Source of the DNA: Candidatus Aenigmatarchaeota archaeon
GTDB taxonomy: Archaea; Aenigmatarchaeota; Aenigmatarchaeia; Aenigmatarchaeales; Aenigmatarchaeaceae
Assembly: GCA_043814985.1 (NCBI GenBank)
Contig: JBDRJK010000009.1
Coordinates: 1-15,598, forward strand
Reading direction: 5' to 3'
DNA: 15,598 nt
A program made the position numbers. Shown piece after piece: positions 9,001-15,000 of the stretch. Each line of letters starts with the position of its first letter. Position 1 is the stretch's first letter.

Positions 9001-12000
9001 ACGTTCTTGATGATGGCTTTGTAAAAAAATATTATAAAGAAAAAAACGGACTTCTGATATTGGACAGAAATAAGTCTAAGGAATCTGGTAAACATGGGGC
9101 AGGAAGAAAATAAGGCATTAATGGTGCTCTCACAAGTAAATGAGGGCATAAGGCAGACAGCCACGACAGTAGATTACTCTACTGTAAACTATACAAAACT
9201 TGAAAGCATCTACAAAACAGACCAGCTCATCTTCCAGGCAGTAAACATCATCAGCACATTCGCCATAAGCAAGGGATACCAATACGTCGTCTCAGAGAAC
9301 ACTGAAGAAGAAATGGCTATGAGAGATAAAATAGCTTCACTTGATACTATCGTCGGGCTTCCAAAGCTATTGACTGATATTGTACGGCATCTGCACATTT
9401 ACGGGAATGCATATCTTGAAATCGTTTACTCCAGAACTGACAATAAGAAAGTTGTCGGTCTCGCACTGATTGATCCTAAGACCATCACATTCAAAAAGAA
9501 AGGGACTGGAGAAATAGACCTTGATGAAAGCGGAAACATAAAAGGGTACATCCAGACTGTAAACGCCAAAAAGATAGAACTTAATCCGAATCAGATAATT
9601 CATTTCAGAATCAACACCATTGCAGACTCTCTTACAGGAACAGGAATCATCGAGCCACTGGTCAAGATTATAGAAGCCAAAAGAAACATTGAGGTAGGTC
9701 TTGCAGAAGCAGTGTATCGTCATGGATTTCCGCAATTCCATGTGAAGCTTGGTGACAAAGAGCATCAGCCTACAGGAGAGCAGGTAACAGAAGAATCTGA
9801 AAAGTACAAAAGAATCAATTCAAAATCAGAATTCGTCACCCCCTATTATTACGAGATTAAGGTTCTTGAAGCTCCTGCATTAAAGGGCGGAGAAAGTTAC
9901 CTCAAGTATTTCATTGACCAGATTGTAGCAGGAACGGGAGTTCCTCAGACCATTCTTCTTGGAAGCGGAGAATTCAGCAACAGGTCATCATCAATGTCAC
10001 AGCAGGAAAACTTCTTTTTATACATCGCAGGAATACAAAGCCTTGTCGCAGAAACACTGCAAAAGGAACTATTCACAAAGATTGTCCTCCTCGATGAATG
10101 TCCTGTATATATGTTTTTCAATTCATTGCAGACAAAATCAGACCTGGAACTCGCCCAGGAAAGAGAGATTTATCTGCGTTATAATGTTTTAACTCCTGAT
10201 GAGGTCAGGCAAGAAATGGGCTTGGAACCTCTTTCTACACCCCCAACGGATGAGCAATCCCAATCTGATGCATCAGGAGATTTTTCTTTCCTCAACGATA
10301 AGGAACTCATGCTCGAGCCAGATTCAGGATTTCAGTACATCCACGAAGAGCTTGATTTCGGAGGAGTGCTCCAGCAATTATCTGAACCTATCCGCTCACG
10401 ATTCATCAAAGACCAGCAGATACTCACTTACAGAATCAACAGGATAATGGACAAAGCAAGGGCAAAAATACTCAACGAAATAGACATAAACACAAAAGAC
10501 GAAACCCCGATTCTTGCACGAGAAAACATTCTCATTGATTCTGAAATGCTTGCCCCTGAGCGAGACGCTCTTGTCGCAGCAATCTTTCTCGATTCAAAAA
10601 AGAAATTCAAGCAGGGAATAAAACTTGGAGAGAACTTCATCAAAAAGAATTATCCCCAGGTTGCAGGAATAAAAGTCAAGAGCACAATCAATGAACAGGC
10701 CATCAGAGCTCTTGACCTGAGAGCATCGCAATTGGCCAATACTGTAAGCGAAGACCTTCTTGCAGCAACCCAGATTTCCATACGTGACGGAATAATGGCT
10801 CGCAAAGGAGCAAAGCAGCTTAAAGAGGACATCGAAGCAATCTTTGAGAAATATGGAGGCTCTTCTGGAAGATTCAATAAAGTCGGTACAAGAGCAGAAC
10901 TCATAGCAAGAACAGAACTGCAGAGGGCATTTATCGAGGGAAATATTCAAAGCTTCAAAGAACTTGGAGTGATGAAAGTCCAGATGTCAATCAATCCTGA
11001 TGCATGCGAGCAATGCATAGAAACATCATCCCAAAACCAGGATGTGTCCATACATCTTGCAGAGGGAATAATCCCAGTTCATCCACGATGCAGATGCGGA
11101 TGGGTTGTATCATTAATTGAGAAATAAAAAGAAAAAGTGTCCCAGCCATAAGCTTGACTATTCCGACGAAACGCCCATTATTGTTGATGTTGTTGTTGCC
11201 ATCGAGGCCATTATTATTGTTGTTGAGATACGCCAGGCGCCCCTAGAGTAGCCATTTCACTTTCCTGAAAGCCACCACCACTTCAGACATTAGCTGTCGT
11301 GGTTGTATTTTATAGCAGCAAGCTGCCGTAGTGAAATGACGTGTAGTTCCAAGCTACTCCATAACCTCATGGAAGTCCATGAAGCAACTGGGACAGAAAG
11401 CAAAATAAAAGAAGGAATATAAAAAAATATCGGTAATTTATCGCTTGTACAGCTGAGATACGGCTTTTAGCATGCCTTCTCTGTTCAGGTCTGGGTTATT
11501 GATAACTGCCAGTGTCTGCTCGAGAGTTGGCTGCACAATGCTTTGAGGAGCTGATTTTTCGCGCGCAACTGCGCCTCCGGCGCCTACCCCGACGAAACGC
11601 CCAACATCGTAGATGCTGTTGTAGCCACCGAGGCCATAATCATTGTAGTCGAGATACGCCAGGCGCCCCTTAGCTTGAGCGTCAAAACCAACATCATTGA
11701 TTCTGTGATAGCTGCCGTTATTACTCCAGCCTTCTCCGCCCTCCTCCTTTTTGCCAAAGAGCATTTTAGCTAATGCTTCTCTGTTTTCAGGAGAGCCAGT
11801 AATCATCAAGACCCTGTCGTCCTGCATAAAAGTATCGTAATCCAGCTGGCCACTGCCGTTAATCTTTGGGCTGTCCTTGTCTAATCGAGCAAAGATAGTG
11901 TAGGGAGTTCCTGGTGCAGGCACATTGCCTTTCCTTGCATCTTCAAGATGTACTCTGGCAACAGTCTGGCCATTATAGCTGCCTTTTCCAACAGCAACCC

Positions 12001-15000
12001 ATTCATCATCAGAAATGGGCATGAACGCATAATTTCCAGCCTGCTTGAATAGCTTTTCCAAGCCTTTTGCAGTAGCCAAAGAGCCTGCTGAATGCCATGC
12101 CTCGTAAGAACGATCTCCGTCTCTCTGTCCATGATATTCACCAGTGATTGTGTCAATCCAAGTAGGTCTGATTGCTTCACGAACTTCAGGATGAGTTGTC
12201 ATGGACTGAATGACCATAGGCATGTCTGCTACGGTTAATCCATGTTCTTGAGAAAGTTTTTCAGCTTGATTTCTTGCCTTAACGTATCCAGTCTGGTCAG
12301 TAACTGCTGCCAGTACAGGTGATTTTATTTGCACGATTTGTGACATTTTGAGCGAACCTCCATTAAATTGACTATCTTTTTATAGGATAAAATCAGGTAG
12401 TATTTAAAGGTTTCGATTTTGTAATCACTACGAAGTAGTGTTGCTTATAAAAACAGCAGATGCCGTCAATCTTCCTTTAGGGGGAACTTCTCAATGAGTA
12501 TGTACTCTTTTTTATTCATACGCACTGCACTGACCTGTACCTTGCTCCCGCTCTTCAAGCCGATTGCCTTGGCCTCTCTGGTAACCAAAACCCCTATCCC
12601 ATTCCCATATGTATTCAGCTGCTTAACAGACCGTTCAATGATTTCCTTTTTTGAATCATTCATTCATGTATCTTACAGTATATAACTAATAAACACCGTA
12701 TTATACAGTATATTACGTGACCAGAATCAATGTTAATAAATCGGATGTAATATACCTTATATTACGATGCAGGATACAGGCATAATTGAGAATGTTTACG
12801 AAGAACTCTGTTCATACGAAAATCTTGAAACCGCTTTCAACAGGGCAAGAAGAGGCAAAACACTCAAGGACTATGTGATTGAATTTGAAGCAAAACTAAA
12901 AGAGAATTTGCTACAGCTGAGGACAGAACTTCTCCTGCAAACATACCAGCCACAACCCCTCAAAACATTCATTCTTCGAGATCCAAAAACAAGGAAGATA
13001 AGCAAGTCAGCATTCAGAGACAGAGTTGTGCATCATGCAATATGCAATATCATTGAGCCTGTTTTTGACAAGAGGTTCATTTACGACTCCTTCGCCAACA
13101 GACTAAGAAAAGGAACCCTAAACGCAGTCAAAAGGTTTGACGAATTCAAAAGAAAAGTGTCGCAGAACAACACTATCAGATGCTATGTTCTCAAAGCAGA
13201 TATCAAAAGTTATTTTGACTCAGTAAACCATCAAATCCTCTTACAAATACTCGGCAAAAGAATCAAGGACGAAAGATTACTGTGGCTCATAAAGACAATT
13301 CTCGACAACCATAAAGGAGAAGACAGCAACAAAGGCATGCCCTTGGGAAATCTCACATCGCAATTCTTTGCCAATGTCTATCTCAATGAATTTGATCAGT
13401 TTGTCAAGCACAAGCTGAGAATCAAATATTACATACGATATGTTGATGATTTTGCAATTCTGCATCAATCTCGCAAAGTACTTGAAGACTACAAAGAAAA
13501 AATTAATACGTTTCTCAAAGACAAGCTGGATCTCAAACTTCATCCAGACAAATCCCAAGTTCTCAAATTGGAGAAAGGCATCGGCTTTCTCGGATTTCGA
13601 GTATTCTACCATCATAAAATCCTAGTAAAAAAGAACATGAGAAAGTTTGAGAAAAAGATGGAACAGATGAAGCATGAGTATGGGGACAAGAAGCTTGAAA
13701 GAGAAAAGGTCATCGAGAAATTCGAAGGCTGGCTTGCATACGCATCTCACGCAAATACTTACAAATACCGAAAAAGAATGACGAGCAAATTCAACCATTC
13801 ATTTCCAACTCAGACAGATACCACAATTACCTCGGTTAAAAAACATGAAAACTTCAATCATAAAGTTGACGAAAGCAAGACGGCATTCAGCCAGCAAAAG
13901 ACACTTCAGCTCGTCAGAAGAGGCATGTCTGTCAAACAAATTGCGGAAGCAAGAGGTATCAAAGAAGGAACCGTCTGGGATCATGTGGCCTCTTCAATTG
14001 AGCATTATCAATTACAGCTGAAGTCAATTCTCCCAAATTATAAAATACGGAAAATTCTTTCCAATATTAAATCACCTGATGATAAAATCAAGGACATAAA
14101 AGAAAGAGTCAATGATATCTCAATATCCTACAACGAGATCAACTGCGTTCTTGCCAACGTCAAAGGAAAACACAAAAAGAAAAGCATGATGTATTTTATC
14201 GACTGGTACAAACGAACAAACTGTTTCAGAAAGTGCTATTTTAATAAAAATCAAAGGCAAGAATGCAGAGTCAAATTTCAGCAGCTCGCTGCCAAGGGTG
14301 CAGAAATGAATTTTACAAAGAAAGAATTTCTCGATTTCTTCAACAATCATGTCAGCATATGCGTTCTTCCAGACAAGGATAAGAGAAAATTTGTTTCATG
14401 GAAAGAGTTCAAACAGAGTCTCCGCAAAAAGAAACCCAATCCAGACAATAAACCATCCGACAATAAGAAACCTACATCTCCCTAAAATAATATTAAGAAA
14501 AAAACAGATTTCTCATGTTATGTCTGAACTACTGCTAAAAGAGATACACGGATTCGTCAGCACTGCTAAATCCAAGAAGGAAGAATCATCTAAGGAAATG
14601 ATAGACGCATTTCTTTCCAACAACGCAGTAGCAGTCCAGATTAATTCCTTATCACGCTCACTTGAATATGTTCAGCTCCATGGCGTAAAAATCCAGCAGG
14701 TTCTAAGGGAAGGCACTTCCCTGAGAATTACAGGAGTGGCCATAAGCGAGGGCATGTGGAATGGCATATTCTATCCTGCAGAAGAGCTGGAGAAAGCATA
14801 CAAAGGACTCGAGGGAAAACCTCTGAGGATTGACCATTCTTCAAGTATAAGGGATATTGTCGGGAAAGTCATCAGGTCAATATGGAATGCTGCTCAGAAA
14901 AGAGTAGAATTTGAAGCAATAGTCAATGATGATGAAATTGCCCAGAAGCTCCTGGACAAGCTGATTGATTCTGTGAGTGTTGGTGTGTTAATAGACAATG

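Follow-up and report, generated by a model that had tools for sequence, protein, structure and literature searches.

How can a structured RNA that lies 5′ of a template repeat (TR) serve reverse transcription that is expected to begin at the 3′ end of that repeat? The question is posed by a diversity-generating retroelement (DGR) in positions 1–15,598 of contig JBDRJK010000009.1 from a Candidatus Aenigmatarchaeota archaeon (the whole 15,598-nt stretch is hereafter the window). Here RT-16 RNA, an Rfam family, abuts the TR, and the gene for the reverse transcriptase (RT) lies 1.4 kb away on the other strand. This arrangement, and all coordinates of the repeats, RT-16, target gene, and RT, were reproduced from an initial annotation.

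A DGR on a virus-like contig

The TR (11158..11244, minus strand) and the variable repeat (VR; 11584..11670, minus strand) are 87 nt each and 85% identical by direct repeat comparison. Read on the minus strand, 13 of 13 differences fall at TR adenines, as first reported, and comprise 8 A>G and 5 A>T; A makes up 29 of the 87 TR nucleotides, giving a chance of about (1/3)^13 that all 13 would do so. VR lies in the 3′ part of the target gene (11438..12346, minus strand), ends with an IMH-type GGGGUAG, and is directly followed, within the gene, by the GC hairpin GCGCC-GGA-GGCGC (11571..11583, minus strand), while the last TR bases, GGAAUAG, hold an IMH*-type motif. The adenine-restricted differences, the IMH/IMH* pair, and the GC inverted repeat after VR are those of a DGR. 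There is evidence that diversification of VR is ongoing: for DNA contigs (contigs, not reads) from two groundwater runs, 12 differences from the window VR are listed, of which 10 fall at TR-adenine positions, and a contig across TR has no listed difference within it.

DGR-clade RTs are marked by I/LGxxxSQ in motif 4 and by YxDD. The 572-aa RT (12767..14485, plus strand; RVT_1, E 1.9e-26; phrog_1423, E 3.5e-116) carries LGNLTSQ and YVDD, and its best solved relative in the PDB is bRT (8ub7, E 7.7e-43), which places it in this clade. Beyond the RT domain, which extends to approximately residue 340, come HTH_40 (375–462) and a conserved tail bearing Cys. Conservation of the C-terminal part holds across 10 long RTs; its fold model weakly resembles the RecQ C-terminal domain, and no Avd-like fold was found in the tail. 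The 302-aa target product is an AvpA-like variable protein, with a weak but specific match to AvpA (PDB 5IOO, residues 155–300, E 0.0015) and no Pfam or PHROG family. Between target and RT lies a 65-aa ORF (12466..12663, minus strand) that is conserved beside the RT, with an 87.5% identical counterpart at the same place in the syntenic provirus G151; no Pfam or PHROG family was found for it.

Pfam and PHROGs identify TerL and a portal on the same contig, in agreement with the initial annotation. The portal gene (9094..11127, plus strand; Mu-type portal with a MuF-like C-terminus; Portal_Mu, 1.7e-15, and PHROGs portal matches) converges on the RNA module, its stop codon separated from TR by 30 nt (11128–11157). 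No ORF of at least 60 aa was found in 11128–11437, leaving no gene between the VR-bearing target and TR.

RT-16 adjoins the TR in most loci of a DGR clade

The window RT-16 (RF03019; 11243..11393, minus strand) is a full-length match to model positions 1–158, at 80.1 bits by cmscan against a curated gathering cut-off of 50, and its 3′ end overlaps the first TR bases by 2 nt. On the minus strand it comprises P1 (11393–11347), the conserved motif CUACACG (11346–11340), and the P2 strands (11340–11331 and 11260–11251), with a 6-nt linker, UACUCU, from P2 to TR. The apical AGUA/GAA loop of the family consensus is missing from this copy.

A scan of the phylum recovered the reported 17 of 151 genomes, with 18 loci. 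RT-16 is present in 66 of 80 loci encoding relatives of the window RT and in 0 of 17 distant phage DGR loci. Non-identical loci number 48, and in 41 of them TR/VR homology begins 0–4 nt beyond the 3′ end of RT-16. Chance falls far short of explaining this link between RT-16 and TR. The proposal that RT-16 is a cis RNA module of this DPANN-type DGR clade is supported. We found no paper linking RT-16 to DGR templates; in the available text of Weinberg et al. 2017 (PMC5737381), a function of further RT motifs in DGRs is offered as speculation only.

The clade takes in RT-16-bearing Nanoarchaeota loci (AAA011-G17). The window shares with Nanoarchaeota (DUSEL4) and other DPANN DGRs the AvpA-like target and, as far as the accessible description of Paul et al. 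2015 (PMC4372165) extends, IMH GGGGT versus IMH* GGAAT and a GC hairpin with a GRA loop. That description of DUSEL4 DGRs, in its accessible parts, mentions no structured RNA beside TR. The window differs from those DGRs in its virus-like contig, inverted RT, and 230-aa C-terminal extension.

It had also been proposed that RT-16 takes over the role of Avd. Avd is indeed absent: a search of the genome, which is 91% complete, matched neither PF05635 nor PF22296 at E up to 1. However, a bAvd gene lies between TR and RT in 7 of 84 RT-16 loci and, given this coexistence, RT-16 does not generally replace Avd. Avd-less DGRs are known: 97 of 372 have no avd homolog, and 75 of 372 belong to an architecture without accessory genes (Wu et al.).

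A covarying long-range helix at the TR 3′ end

RT-16 is only part of the template RNA unit. The Rfam model ends at TR and draws its 5′ strand as the local hairpin P1, whereas in the window unit this strand has partners beyond TR, outside the model, with which it forms a long-range closing helix newly found here. The outer strands are a (UGUCCCAG; 11388..11395, minus strand), which shares the first 6 nt of Rfam P1, and its perfect 8-nt complement a′ (CUGGGACA; 11138..11145, minus strand). The inner strands are b (AGCUUGG; 11355–11349, minus strand), within P1 and just 5′ of CUACACG, and b′ (UCAAGCU; 11151..11157, minus strand), which begins at the first base after TR. The CUA of CUACACG pairs with the last three TR bases, UAG (11160–11158), so that pairing of the primer-like strand ends at A11344, opposite U11160; C11343 and A11342 are unpaired and, in alignment columns, invariant. 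In the window, an AA bulge shifts the b:b′ register relative to CUA:UAG. Free-energy folding of the window RNA gives a structure that includes a:a′ and P2 (z −2.98), and a:a′ is present in both MFE and centroid folds.

Pairing between the two sides of TR is specific to each locus. Among 16 loci, the pairing energy of cognate 5′ and 3′ segments is −25.1 kcal/mol, compared with −17.6 kcal/mol for non-cognate segments; 0 of 100000 permutations were as good, and 15 of 16 loci ranked in the top 3, with L024 failing the test. Each half of the helix carries this signal on its own. For b:b′ alone (82 loci), the best helix flush with CUACACG directly follows a TR end of the type AAT[AG][AG] in 44 of 82, and 0 of 100000 permutations reached the observed mean. 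For a:a′ alone, with b excluded (48 loci), cognate and non-cognate energies are −15.8 and −10.4 kcal/mol, respectively (0 of 100000 permutations).

Covariation was counted for an 11-bp helix in a MAFFT alignment of 29 loci. Some loci in this and the 48-locus set were picked by the pairing scan (44) or placed by eye (6), so the 89% of cells paired is an inflated figure; shuffling gives 66.8%, and none of 500 shuffles reached the observed value. The two-sided changes found in 10 of 11 pairs are unaffected. The covariation score is 0.723 versus 0.304, and slid registers are 22–47% paired. CUA and the TR end also covary across the 48 loci, occurring as CUA/UAG (22), CUA/UAA (12), CCA/UGG (10), CCA/UGA (2), UUA/UAA (1), and CUC/GAG (1), and the first of the three pairs is a C·A mismatch in 14. 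Provirus G151, which has the same layout, carries UGUCUCAG/CUGAGACA in place of a/a′, a compensatory change.

The helix brackets TR exactly. TR/VR homology stops 0–2 nt before b′ in 40 of 48 loci. VR keeps the A of the TR-end UAG in 26 of 34 loci, homology being already over in all 8 exceptions. Of the two A's just 5′ of UAG, one differs in 35 of 43 loci and the other in 40 of 42; the closing helix ends exactly at the border between the unchanged UAG and the changed AA. AA versus GG at this place is the known IMH*/IMH difference and need not mark a start site; partial text of Paul et al. 2015 (PMC4372165) gives IMH* as TGGAAT and IMH as TGGGGT.

Through the closing helix, the 5′ part of RT-16 reaches the 3′ end of TR, and a 5′ element can thereby serve that end, which answers the objection that this site misfits priming there. 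We propose, with a probability of roughly 0.6, that the minus strand from about 11395 to 11130 yields a self-contained DGR template RNA of approximately 265 nt in which TR is clamped between P2 and the closing helix. The ends of the RNA would pair through a:a′ and then b:b′, running on into the three CUA:UAG pairs, and TR would form a single-stranded loop, its 5′ end held by P2, 6 nt upstream, and its 3′ end by the closing helix. The divergent gene would supply the RT in trans, and the enzyme would bind the RT-16 core. Synthesis of cDNA would start at A11161, next to the last pair A11344:U11160, probably primed from the 2′-OH of A11344 or the invariant A11342. The RT would then copy TR, with errors at adenines, and stop at the P2 helix.

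Comparison with BPP-1 and retrons

The DGR RNA of Bordetella phage BPP-1, composed of the avd 3′ end, TR, and the spacer Sp (Rfam RF03022, formerly RT-10, now Phage_DGR), has a solved structure with the arrangement proposed here. According to the accessible text of Handa et al. (bioRxiv 10.1101/2023.10.23.563531), bRT is cis-primed, a “stop” duplex lies just 5′ of TR, and a template:primer duplex lies at the TR 3′ end, where Sp A56 pairs with TR U118 and synthesis begins at G117. The window RNA resembles this arrangement in several respects. TR is looped out between a 5′ duplex (P2) and a duplex gripping its 3′ end (b, CUA:UAG, and b′), the latter holding it against a strand that ends in a conserved A. 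This strand continues through a short linker (2 nt in BPP-1, the 3-nt CAC in the window) into a strand of the 5′ duplex. The gap from duplex to TR is 6 nt, versus roughly 8 nt in BPP-1 as estimated from those published positions that are accessible. The family consensus has a hairpin with an AGUA..GAA-type internal loop, and the window RT is closest to bRT.

The differences concern the order of these parts. In the window, the scaffold lies 5′ of TR rather than 3′, the primer-like strand comes from the 5′ end of the RNA, and the RNA ends are paired where BPP-1 has its Avd-binding stem-loop; Avd is missing, and the RT gene is on the opposite strand. The window chain would thus have been opened elsewhere than in BPP-1, so that the scaffold comes to lie 5′ of TR. 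A BPP-1-type spacer 3′ of TR was excluded: the RF03022 covariance model, which scores BPP-1 itself at 104.7 bits, has no match in the window at the gathering cut-off, and just 30 nt follow TR. Neither was there a match at E up to 10 in 9 RT-16 loci. Any kinship of RT-16 with the phage spacer would rest on topology and on the similar AGUA..GAA loop, recognized by eye.

Retron msr-msd RNA is closed by a terminal inverted repeat, with the structured part 5′ and the template 3′. The template is read from the end beside the closing helix, and the priming nucleotide sits at the inner end of the helix on its 5′ strand. The window template RNA has the same strand order. It differs from a retron in that its RT is of the DGR clade (SQ motif, best match bRT), its product is presumably meant to rewrite a gene, no msDNA is known, and the priming base would be A, not G. 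Retron identity was rejected, as the RT matches bRT (7.7e-43) better than chains named retron-type RT (3.9e-26). We tentatively suggest, as a reading somewhat short of even odds, that RT-16-type RNAs represent the Bordetella-type DGR RNA in a naturally circularly permuted form, the same two duplexes gripping TR but the chain opened at the Avd-binding stem-loop, with retron strand order and 2′-OH priming from a CUACACG adenosine (A11344 or A11342).

The candidate priming nucleotides (11342..11344, minus strand) are designated by analogy with Sp A56:TR U118, by column conservation, and by the pair counts. It is conceivable, if unlikely, that the role of RT-16 and the clamp is to bind the RT and delimit the copied region, as stop and holder, and that priming does not use a 2′-OH of CUACACG but happens in another way, for example on nicked target DNA or de novo. 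The helix evidence concerns geometry only, L034 has C rather than A at the candidate position, the AA bulge lies beside CUA in the window, and the phage spacer model finds no sequence-level match, all of which would fit such priming. Against it stand the cis-priming described in the available text on bRT, the closest solved relative, and the end of the helix at the unchanged-UAG/changed-AA border, as a template:primer duplex predicts.

Predicted ends and possible processing of the template RNA

A TATA-like box (TTTTTTTATAT; 11417..11427, minus strand) is centered approximately 26 nt upstream of a, where it may serve as an archaeal promoter for the template RNA. Among 46 relatives, TATA-like motifs are most frequent at −30..−26 from a (29 starts, compared with 1–11 in other bins). 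A BRE/TATA-like box at this distance in the window and most relatives suggests, from sequence, that the template RNA has its own transcription start. Directly 3′ of the closing helix, a T-rich run (CUUUUUCUUUUUAUUU; 11122..11137, minus strand) overlaps the portal stop codon and is a candidate archaeal termination signal; G151 has the same portal neighbor and a comparable T-run after a′.

The helix joins these predicted transcript ends, and a second alternative holds that it mainly defines or processes the transcript, through end protection, a cleavage site, or, in some lineages, bulge-helix-bulge excision, without taking part directly in reverse transcription. In relatives, TR has inserts that VR lacks, which indicates that RNA processing occurs in the clade, and in L025, L027, and L029 the closing helix has 3-nt bulges on opposite strands around a 4–5 bp center. 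However, this shape is absent from the window and most other loci, and at CUACACG and the TR end the inner end of the helix is positioned to the exact base and covaries, a precision that end protection does not need. We consider this alternative improbable.

The initial annotation regarded RT-16 as the 3′ tail of the target mRNA. One RNA-library contig does bridge the target stop codon into RT-16, so the RNA 5′ end may not be at a; the TATA-like box speaks against the claim, which is uncertain. In 59 of 66 loci RT-16 immediately precedes the RT and shares its strand. The RNA gene stands away from the RT gene in the window and in L037, L038, L043, L047, L049, L070, and L072, and likewise in the records of L129 (6.1 kb) and L041 (6.7 kb). 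Although RT-16 begins 44 nt after the target stop codon and that contig spans the junction, a 3′ UTR element acting in mRNA stability, termination, or translation control, with incidental TR adjacency, is very hard to credit, since RT-16 always adjoins TR and not each target: it stays at TR in multi-VR loci, in a locus whose VR lies on the opposite strand at a distance of 4 kb, and in G151, where two genes carry A-only VRs and the single RT-16 is beside TR, and it mostly precedes the RT as just described.

If RT-16-type RNAs are indeed circularly permuted, 2′-OH-primed forms of the Bordetella-type DGR RNA, a 572-aa RT without Avd, together with an RNA of approximately 265 nt supplied in trans, may suffice for the step of adenine-mutagenic reverse transcription.

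Results

The window is the whole of the 15.6-kb contig C9, one of 21 contigs in a genome of 808 kb, and the system it carries is a real, recently active diversity-generating retroelement (DGR) of known DPANN type on a virus-like contig. By repeat search, the 87-nt template repeat (TR, 11158–11244, minus strand) is 85% identical to the 87-nt variable repeat (VR, 11584–11670, minus strand) inside the target gene. On the minus strand TR has 29 A's, and every one of the 13 differences falls on one of them (8 A>G, 5 A>T). RT-16 (RF03019) occupies 11243–11393 on the minus strand and adjoins TR (cmscan 80.1 bits against a cut-off of 50, full model matched). 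The order on this strand is target gene (12346–11438) including VR, a 44-nt AT-rich gap, RT-16, TR, and, 30 nt past TR, the stop codon of the portal gene, which is convergent with the RNA module. The repeats, their A-only differences and the placement of RT-16 had been put forward in the initial annotation; all were reproduced, and every fact stated there on the layout is upheld.

The reverse transcriptase (RT, 12767–14485, plus strand) comprises an RVT_1 domain with LGNLTSQ and YVDD motifs and a C-terminal HTH_40; its closest solved structure is bRT, the RT of Bordetella phage BPP-1 (8ub7, E 7.7e-43). VR ends in GGGGUAG, followed by a GCGCC-GGA-GGCGC hairpin, and TR ends in GGAAUAG. These ends agree exactly with the TGGGGT (IMH)/TGGAAT (IMH*) pair and GRA-loop hairpin described for nanoarchaeal DGRs in the accessible text of Paul et al. 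(2015, PMC4372165). The target gene product weakly matches the nanoarchaeal variable protein AvpA (5IOO, E 0.0015). A search of the host genome for further VRs found none. DNA contigs from two groundwater runs have 12 listed VR differences relative to the window, 10 of them at TR-adenine positions, and a groundwater DNA contig across TR has three listed differences, none within TR.

Of the 21 contigs, C9 is the richest in G+C (41.3%) and, in tetranucleotide composition, correlates least with the remaining genome (0.880). A host link by shared sequence was sought, but C9 has no short matches and no shared genes with the other 20 contigs. C9 represents part of a virus or provirus, and the bin by itself does not show its host.

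In the phylum sample, RT-16 occurs in 17 of 151 genomes, at 18 loci, and in 13 of these an ungapped, adenine-tolerant search of 6-kb flanks places a TR-like repeat directly after it. Of the 17 loci other than the window, 15 have an RT gene immediately downstream of RT-16 and on its strand, so that the usual order is VR, RT-16, TR, RT and the window is the exception. Scanning species genomes with an alignment of 11 RTs (A1) returned at least 590 loci with a related RT. The best 80 of these are nearly all labelled as DPANN archaea, including Nanoarchaeota AAA011-G17, and 66 of the 80 contain RT-16 by the Rfam model (15, 16, 18, and 17 by batch); in six of the 14 misses (L067, L069, L071, L098, L099, L104) the DNA ahead of the RT match is shorter than 160 nt. 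Of the 66 copies, 59 closely precede the RT on its own strand and seven are on the opposite strand. On viral contigs, RT-16 was found in two of three loci with a close RT (L130, L131) and in none of 17 whose RT is 35–41% identical. Two contigs of one genome (L026 and L028) carry RT-16 copies with identical 60 nt upstream and no full RT gene downstream. L028 retains an RT fragment of only 29 residues, one copy of the pair is broken in its 3′ half, and both are likely relics.

The long RTs (at least 450 residues) form the subclade of the window, in which the RNA gene is often separate from the RT gene. The IMG/VR provirus G151 is syntenic with the window (MTase 78%, ParB 69%, TerL 82%, portal 75%, orf65 87.5%, RT 73%) and has RT-16 and TR directly after its portal gene, 6.1 kb from the RT, together with two VRs whose differences lie at A in 15 of 15 and 15 of 16 cases. 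A 65-residue ORF between target and RT (12466–12663, minus strand) is 87.5% identical and in the same place in G151; it matched no family. Upstream of the terminase, the window has a prim-pol-like gene, a D12 adenine methyltransferase and a ParB-like gene (3480–4613 and 5135–7285), and the order of the last two is kept in G151. Neither the other 12 window proteins nor the RT tail, searched separately, matched the 80 genome loci. An AT-rich 20-nt repeat (GTATTATACAGTATATTACG type) occurs three times at 12668–12769, just ahead of the RT start codon, along with a 23-nt inverted repeat; these may be a regulatory site for RT expression.

Comparison of the flanks of all loci revealed two pairs of complementary strands that enclose TR. 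The inner strand b, just upstream of the conserved CUACACG, is complementary to b′, just after TR, and the outer strand a, further upstream than b, is complementary to a′, which follows b′. In the window (minus strand), a (UGUCCCAG, 11395–11388) pairs with a′ (CUGGGACA, 11145–11138), and b (AGCUUGG, 11355–11349) with b′ (UCAAGCU, 11157–11151). The Rfam model of RT-16 is thus incomplete, its partner strands lying past TR. An initial wide-window duplex test was significant but noisy, and was superseded by narrow windows. With these, cognate flanks of 16 loci pair at −25.1 kcal/mol versus −17.6 for non-cognate ones (0 of 100000 permutations as extreme), 15 loci ranking in the top three and L024 failing. 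The longest helix flush with CUACACG averages 6.19 in cognate versus 5.06 in non-cognate pairings (0 of 100000 permutations as high) over 82 loci, that is, 84 minus L026 and L028. Its best site directly follows AATAG, AATAA, AATGG or a close variant in 44 of the 82; this strict scan mis-sites the other 38, including the window, through offsets of 1–2 nt.

Parts of the helix were also addressed singly. The 44 sited loci, plus six set at narrow-window-test sites and minus two duplicates, gave 48 non-identical loci, in which a:a′ alone, with b excluded, pairs at −15.8 versus −10.4 kcal/mol (0 of 100000 permutations as extreme). In the same 48, bases 1–3 of CUACACG pair with the last three bases of TR (CUA/UAG 22, CUA/UAA 12, CCA/UGG 10, CCA/UGA 2, UUA/UAA 1, CUC/GAG 1), the middle pair being standard, U-A or C-G, in every locus. 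In a MAFFT alignment of 29 loci with TR of at most 112 nt (A2), pairs were counted on an 11-bp helix. Since the loci of the flush-helix scan, of the a:a′ test and of this alignment were partly picked by pairing, the percentage of cells paired is raised (89.0%, versus 66.8% shuffled, 0 of 500 shuffles as high; 22–47% in slid registers), but this choice affects neither the two-sided changes, found at 10 of 11 pairs (90 cells versus 32.8 shuffled), nor the three CUA pairs, which were unused in it. The covariation score is 0.723 versus 0.304 shuffled. A thermodynamic fold of 11400–11128 contains a:a′ and P2, the RT-16 helix 5′ of TR, in both the MFE and centroid structures (z −2.98), and the G151 closing helix (UGUCUCAG/CUGAGACA) shows a compensatory change relative to the window.

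By eye, the closing helix in L025, L027, and L029 has 3-nt bulges on opposite strands round a centre of 4–5 bp, which recalls the archaeal bulge-helix-bulge. This interpretation fits these three loci only, not the window, and was rejected.

The limits of TR are likewise fixed to the base, by the end of RT-16 on one side and by b′ on the other. TR/VR homology begins 0–4 nt past the end of RT-16 in 41 of 48 loci, and stops 0–2 nt before b′ in 40 and 0–5 nt before it in 44. Bases at the TR end were compared in the 44 loci with a VR match. VR departs from TR at the two A's of the AAU there in 35 of 43 and 40 of 42 loci, usually reading GG, which is the known IMH/IMH* difference as given in the accessible text of Paul et al. 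(2015, PMC4372165). The following U is the same in VR in 40 of 43 loci, as is the A of UAG in 26 of 34; in all eight exceptions, homology stopped before that base. The end of the helix (in the window, A11344:U11160) therefore falls where changed bases give way to unchanged ones, a prediction fixed before counting. Internal TR inserts (1–3, of approximately 15–58 nt, absent from VR) occur in L019, L023, L024, L025, L030, L031, L032, L035, L066, and L091; the window TR is without them.

Across 46 loci, the commonest place for a TATA-like motif is −30 to −26 relative to the first base of a (29 starts, versus 1–11 in the other nine bins). The window has such a box (TTTTTTTATAT, 11427–11417, minus strand), and a T-run directly after a′. 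Contigs from two RNA-library runs fall on the window: one from run X18 (11173–11353, zero mismatches) and two from run X17 (11307–11457 and 11469–11615), the first of which joins the target stop codon to RT-16. As they carry no end or strand information and DNA can occur in such libraries, these contigs point only weakly to expression and may reflect read-through from the target gene; gaps in their cover of the 1.9-kb stretch do not show that it is silent. The proposal that RT-16 is the 3′ tail of the target mRNA accordingly finds some support in the X17 contig, while the TATA-like box upstream of a speaks against it.

RT-16 had also been suggested to take over the role of Avd. Consistent with this, Avd families have no match in the window genome (91% complete), nor do the window ORFs match Pfam Avd. 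However, an Avd gene (bAvd) lies between a′ and RT in seven of 84 relatives' loci, so RT-16 is not a general Avd replacement. The RT C-terminal extension was considered as an Avd substitute and rejected, no Avd-like match being among those listed. The predicted model of residues 341–572 (window 13787–14482; mean pLDDT 73.9) has no PDB match at E up to 0.001; its best match, to the RecQ C-terminal domain, is weak (E 0.3) and agrees with HTH_40. This tail is conserved across 10 long RTs, in which four cysteines (C146, C150, C160, C192, fragment numbering) are invariant.

Runs of 9–13 G occur at conserved places, either at the avd/RT junction (L030, L032, L033, L034, L035), where they encode a Gly linker, or at the 3′ end of the target upstream of RT-16 (L025, L027, L029). 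The avd and RT genes form one frame in L030 (472 residues) and L034 (453 residues), giving bAvd plus RVT_1; in L032, L033, and L035 the two frames differ. At the G-run, slippage or an assembly error could switch between fused and separate proteins. The window genome has no such run.

Discussion

The closing helix, the CUA:UAG pairs and the proposed permuted topology are the new elements of this analysis. In the BPP-1 RNA, which consists of the avd 3′ end, TR and a spacer (Sp), TR is looped out between two adjacent duplexes, according to the accessible text of Handa et al. (bioRxiv 10.1101/2023.10.23.563531), the source of the following details. The “cPRT Stop” duplex (avd 369–379 with Sp 59–70) lies a few bases 5′ of TR, and the template:primer duplex joins TR 117–129 to Sp 47–56. 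Sp A56, paired with U118, provides the 2′-OH that primes at G117, and is followed by 2 nt, the stop strand, a single-stranded ring and an RT-binding stem-loop. The 5′ strand of RT-16 runs b, CUA, a 3-nt linker, the P2 5′ strand, an A-rich single strand, the AGUA..GAA hairpin of the family consensus and the P2 3′ strand, which in the window is 6 nt from TR. We infer that the two RNAs share one pairing scheme round TR, with the chain opened at another place. The paired ends of RT-16 RNAs take the position that in BPP-1, as described, belongs to an Avd-binding stem-loop linking TR to the primer strand. In the order of its strands, RT-16 RNA equals retron RNA. The interest of this DGR is in its template RNA, which represents a new form of the DGR scaffold; comparative backing for its structure is strong, and the mechanism that we infer is open to test.

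Kinship of RT-16 with phage spacer RNA at the sequence level was rejected, as RF03022 (now Phage_DGR), which scores 104.7 bits on BPP-1, has no match in nine RT-16 loci at E up to 10. A weak RT-17 match in L064 (2767–2860, 26.4 bits, E 0.79) overlaps the RT-16 core, the only such overlap found, and hints that several Rfam RT motifs are related. The accessible text of the JAR3D paper lists sarcin-ricin-like loops in RT-10, RT-14, and RT-16 to RT-19. The survey of other DGRs in the accessible text of Handa et al. (10.1101/2023.10.23.563531) folded 40 nt upstream and 100 nt downstream of TR, a span in which strands a and b of the RT-16 type would be missed. In the accessible text of Weinberg et al. 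(2017, PMC5737381), a role for further RT motifs in DGRs is speculation only. The literature search, whose reach ended short of the supplements of that paper, found no paper assigning RT-16 a role.

RT-16, an orphan Rfam family widespread in DPANN archaea, is here given a putative function and a full secondary-structure frame, with nucleotides open to test (a, a′, b, b′, CUA:UAG, A11344, A11342). In both the window and G151 the RNA has a small gene of its own, with the RT supplied in trans, an arrangement that engineered targeted mutagenesis calls for. The findings suggest that the grip on both template ends, solved for one phage, persists in a distant archaeal clade where the order along the chain differs; if so, it would explain how DGRs without Avd might position their template.
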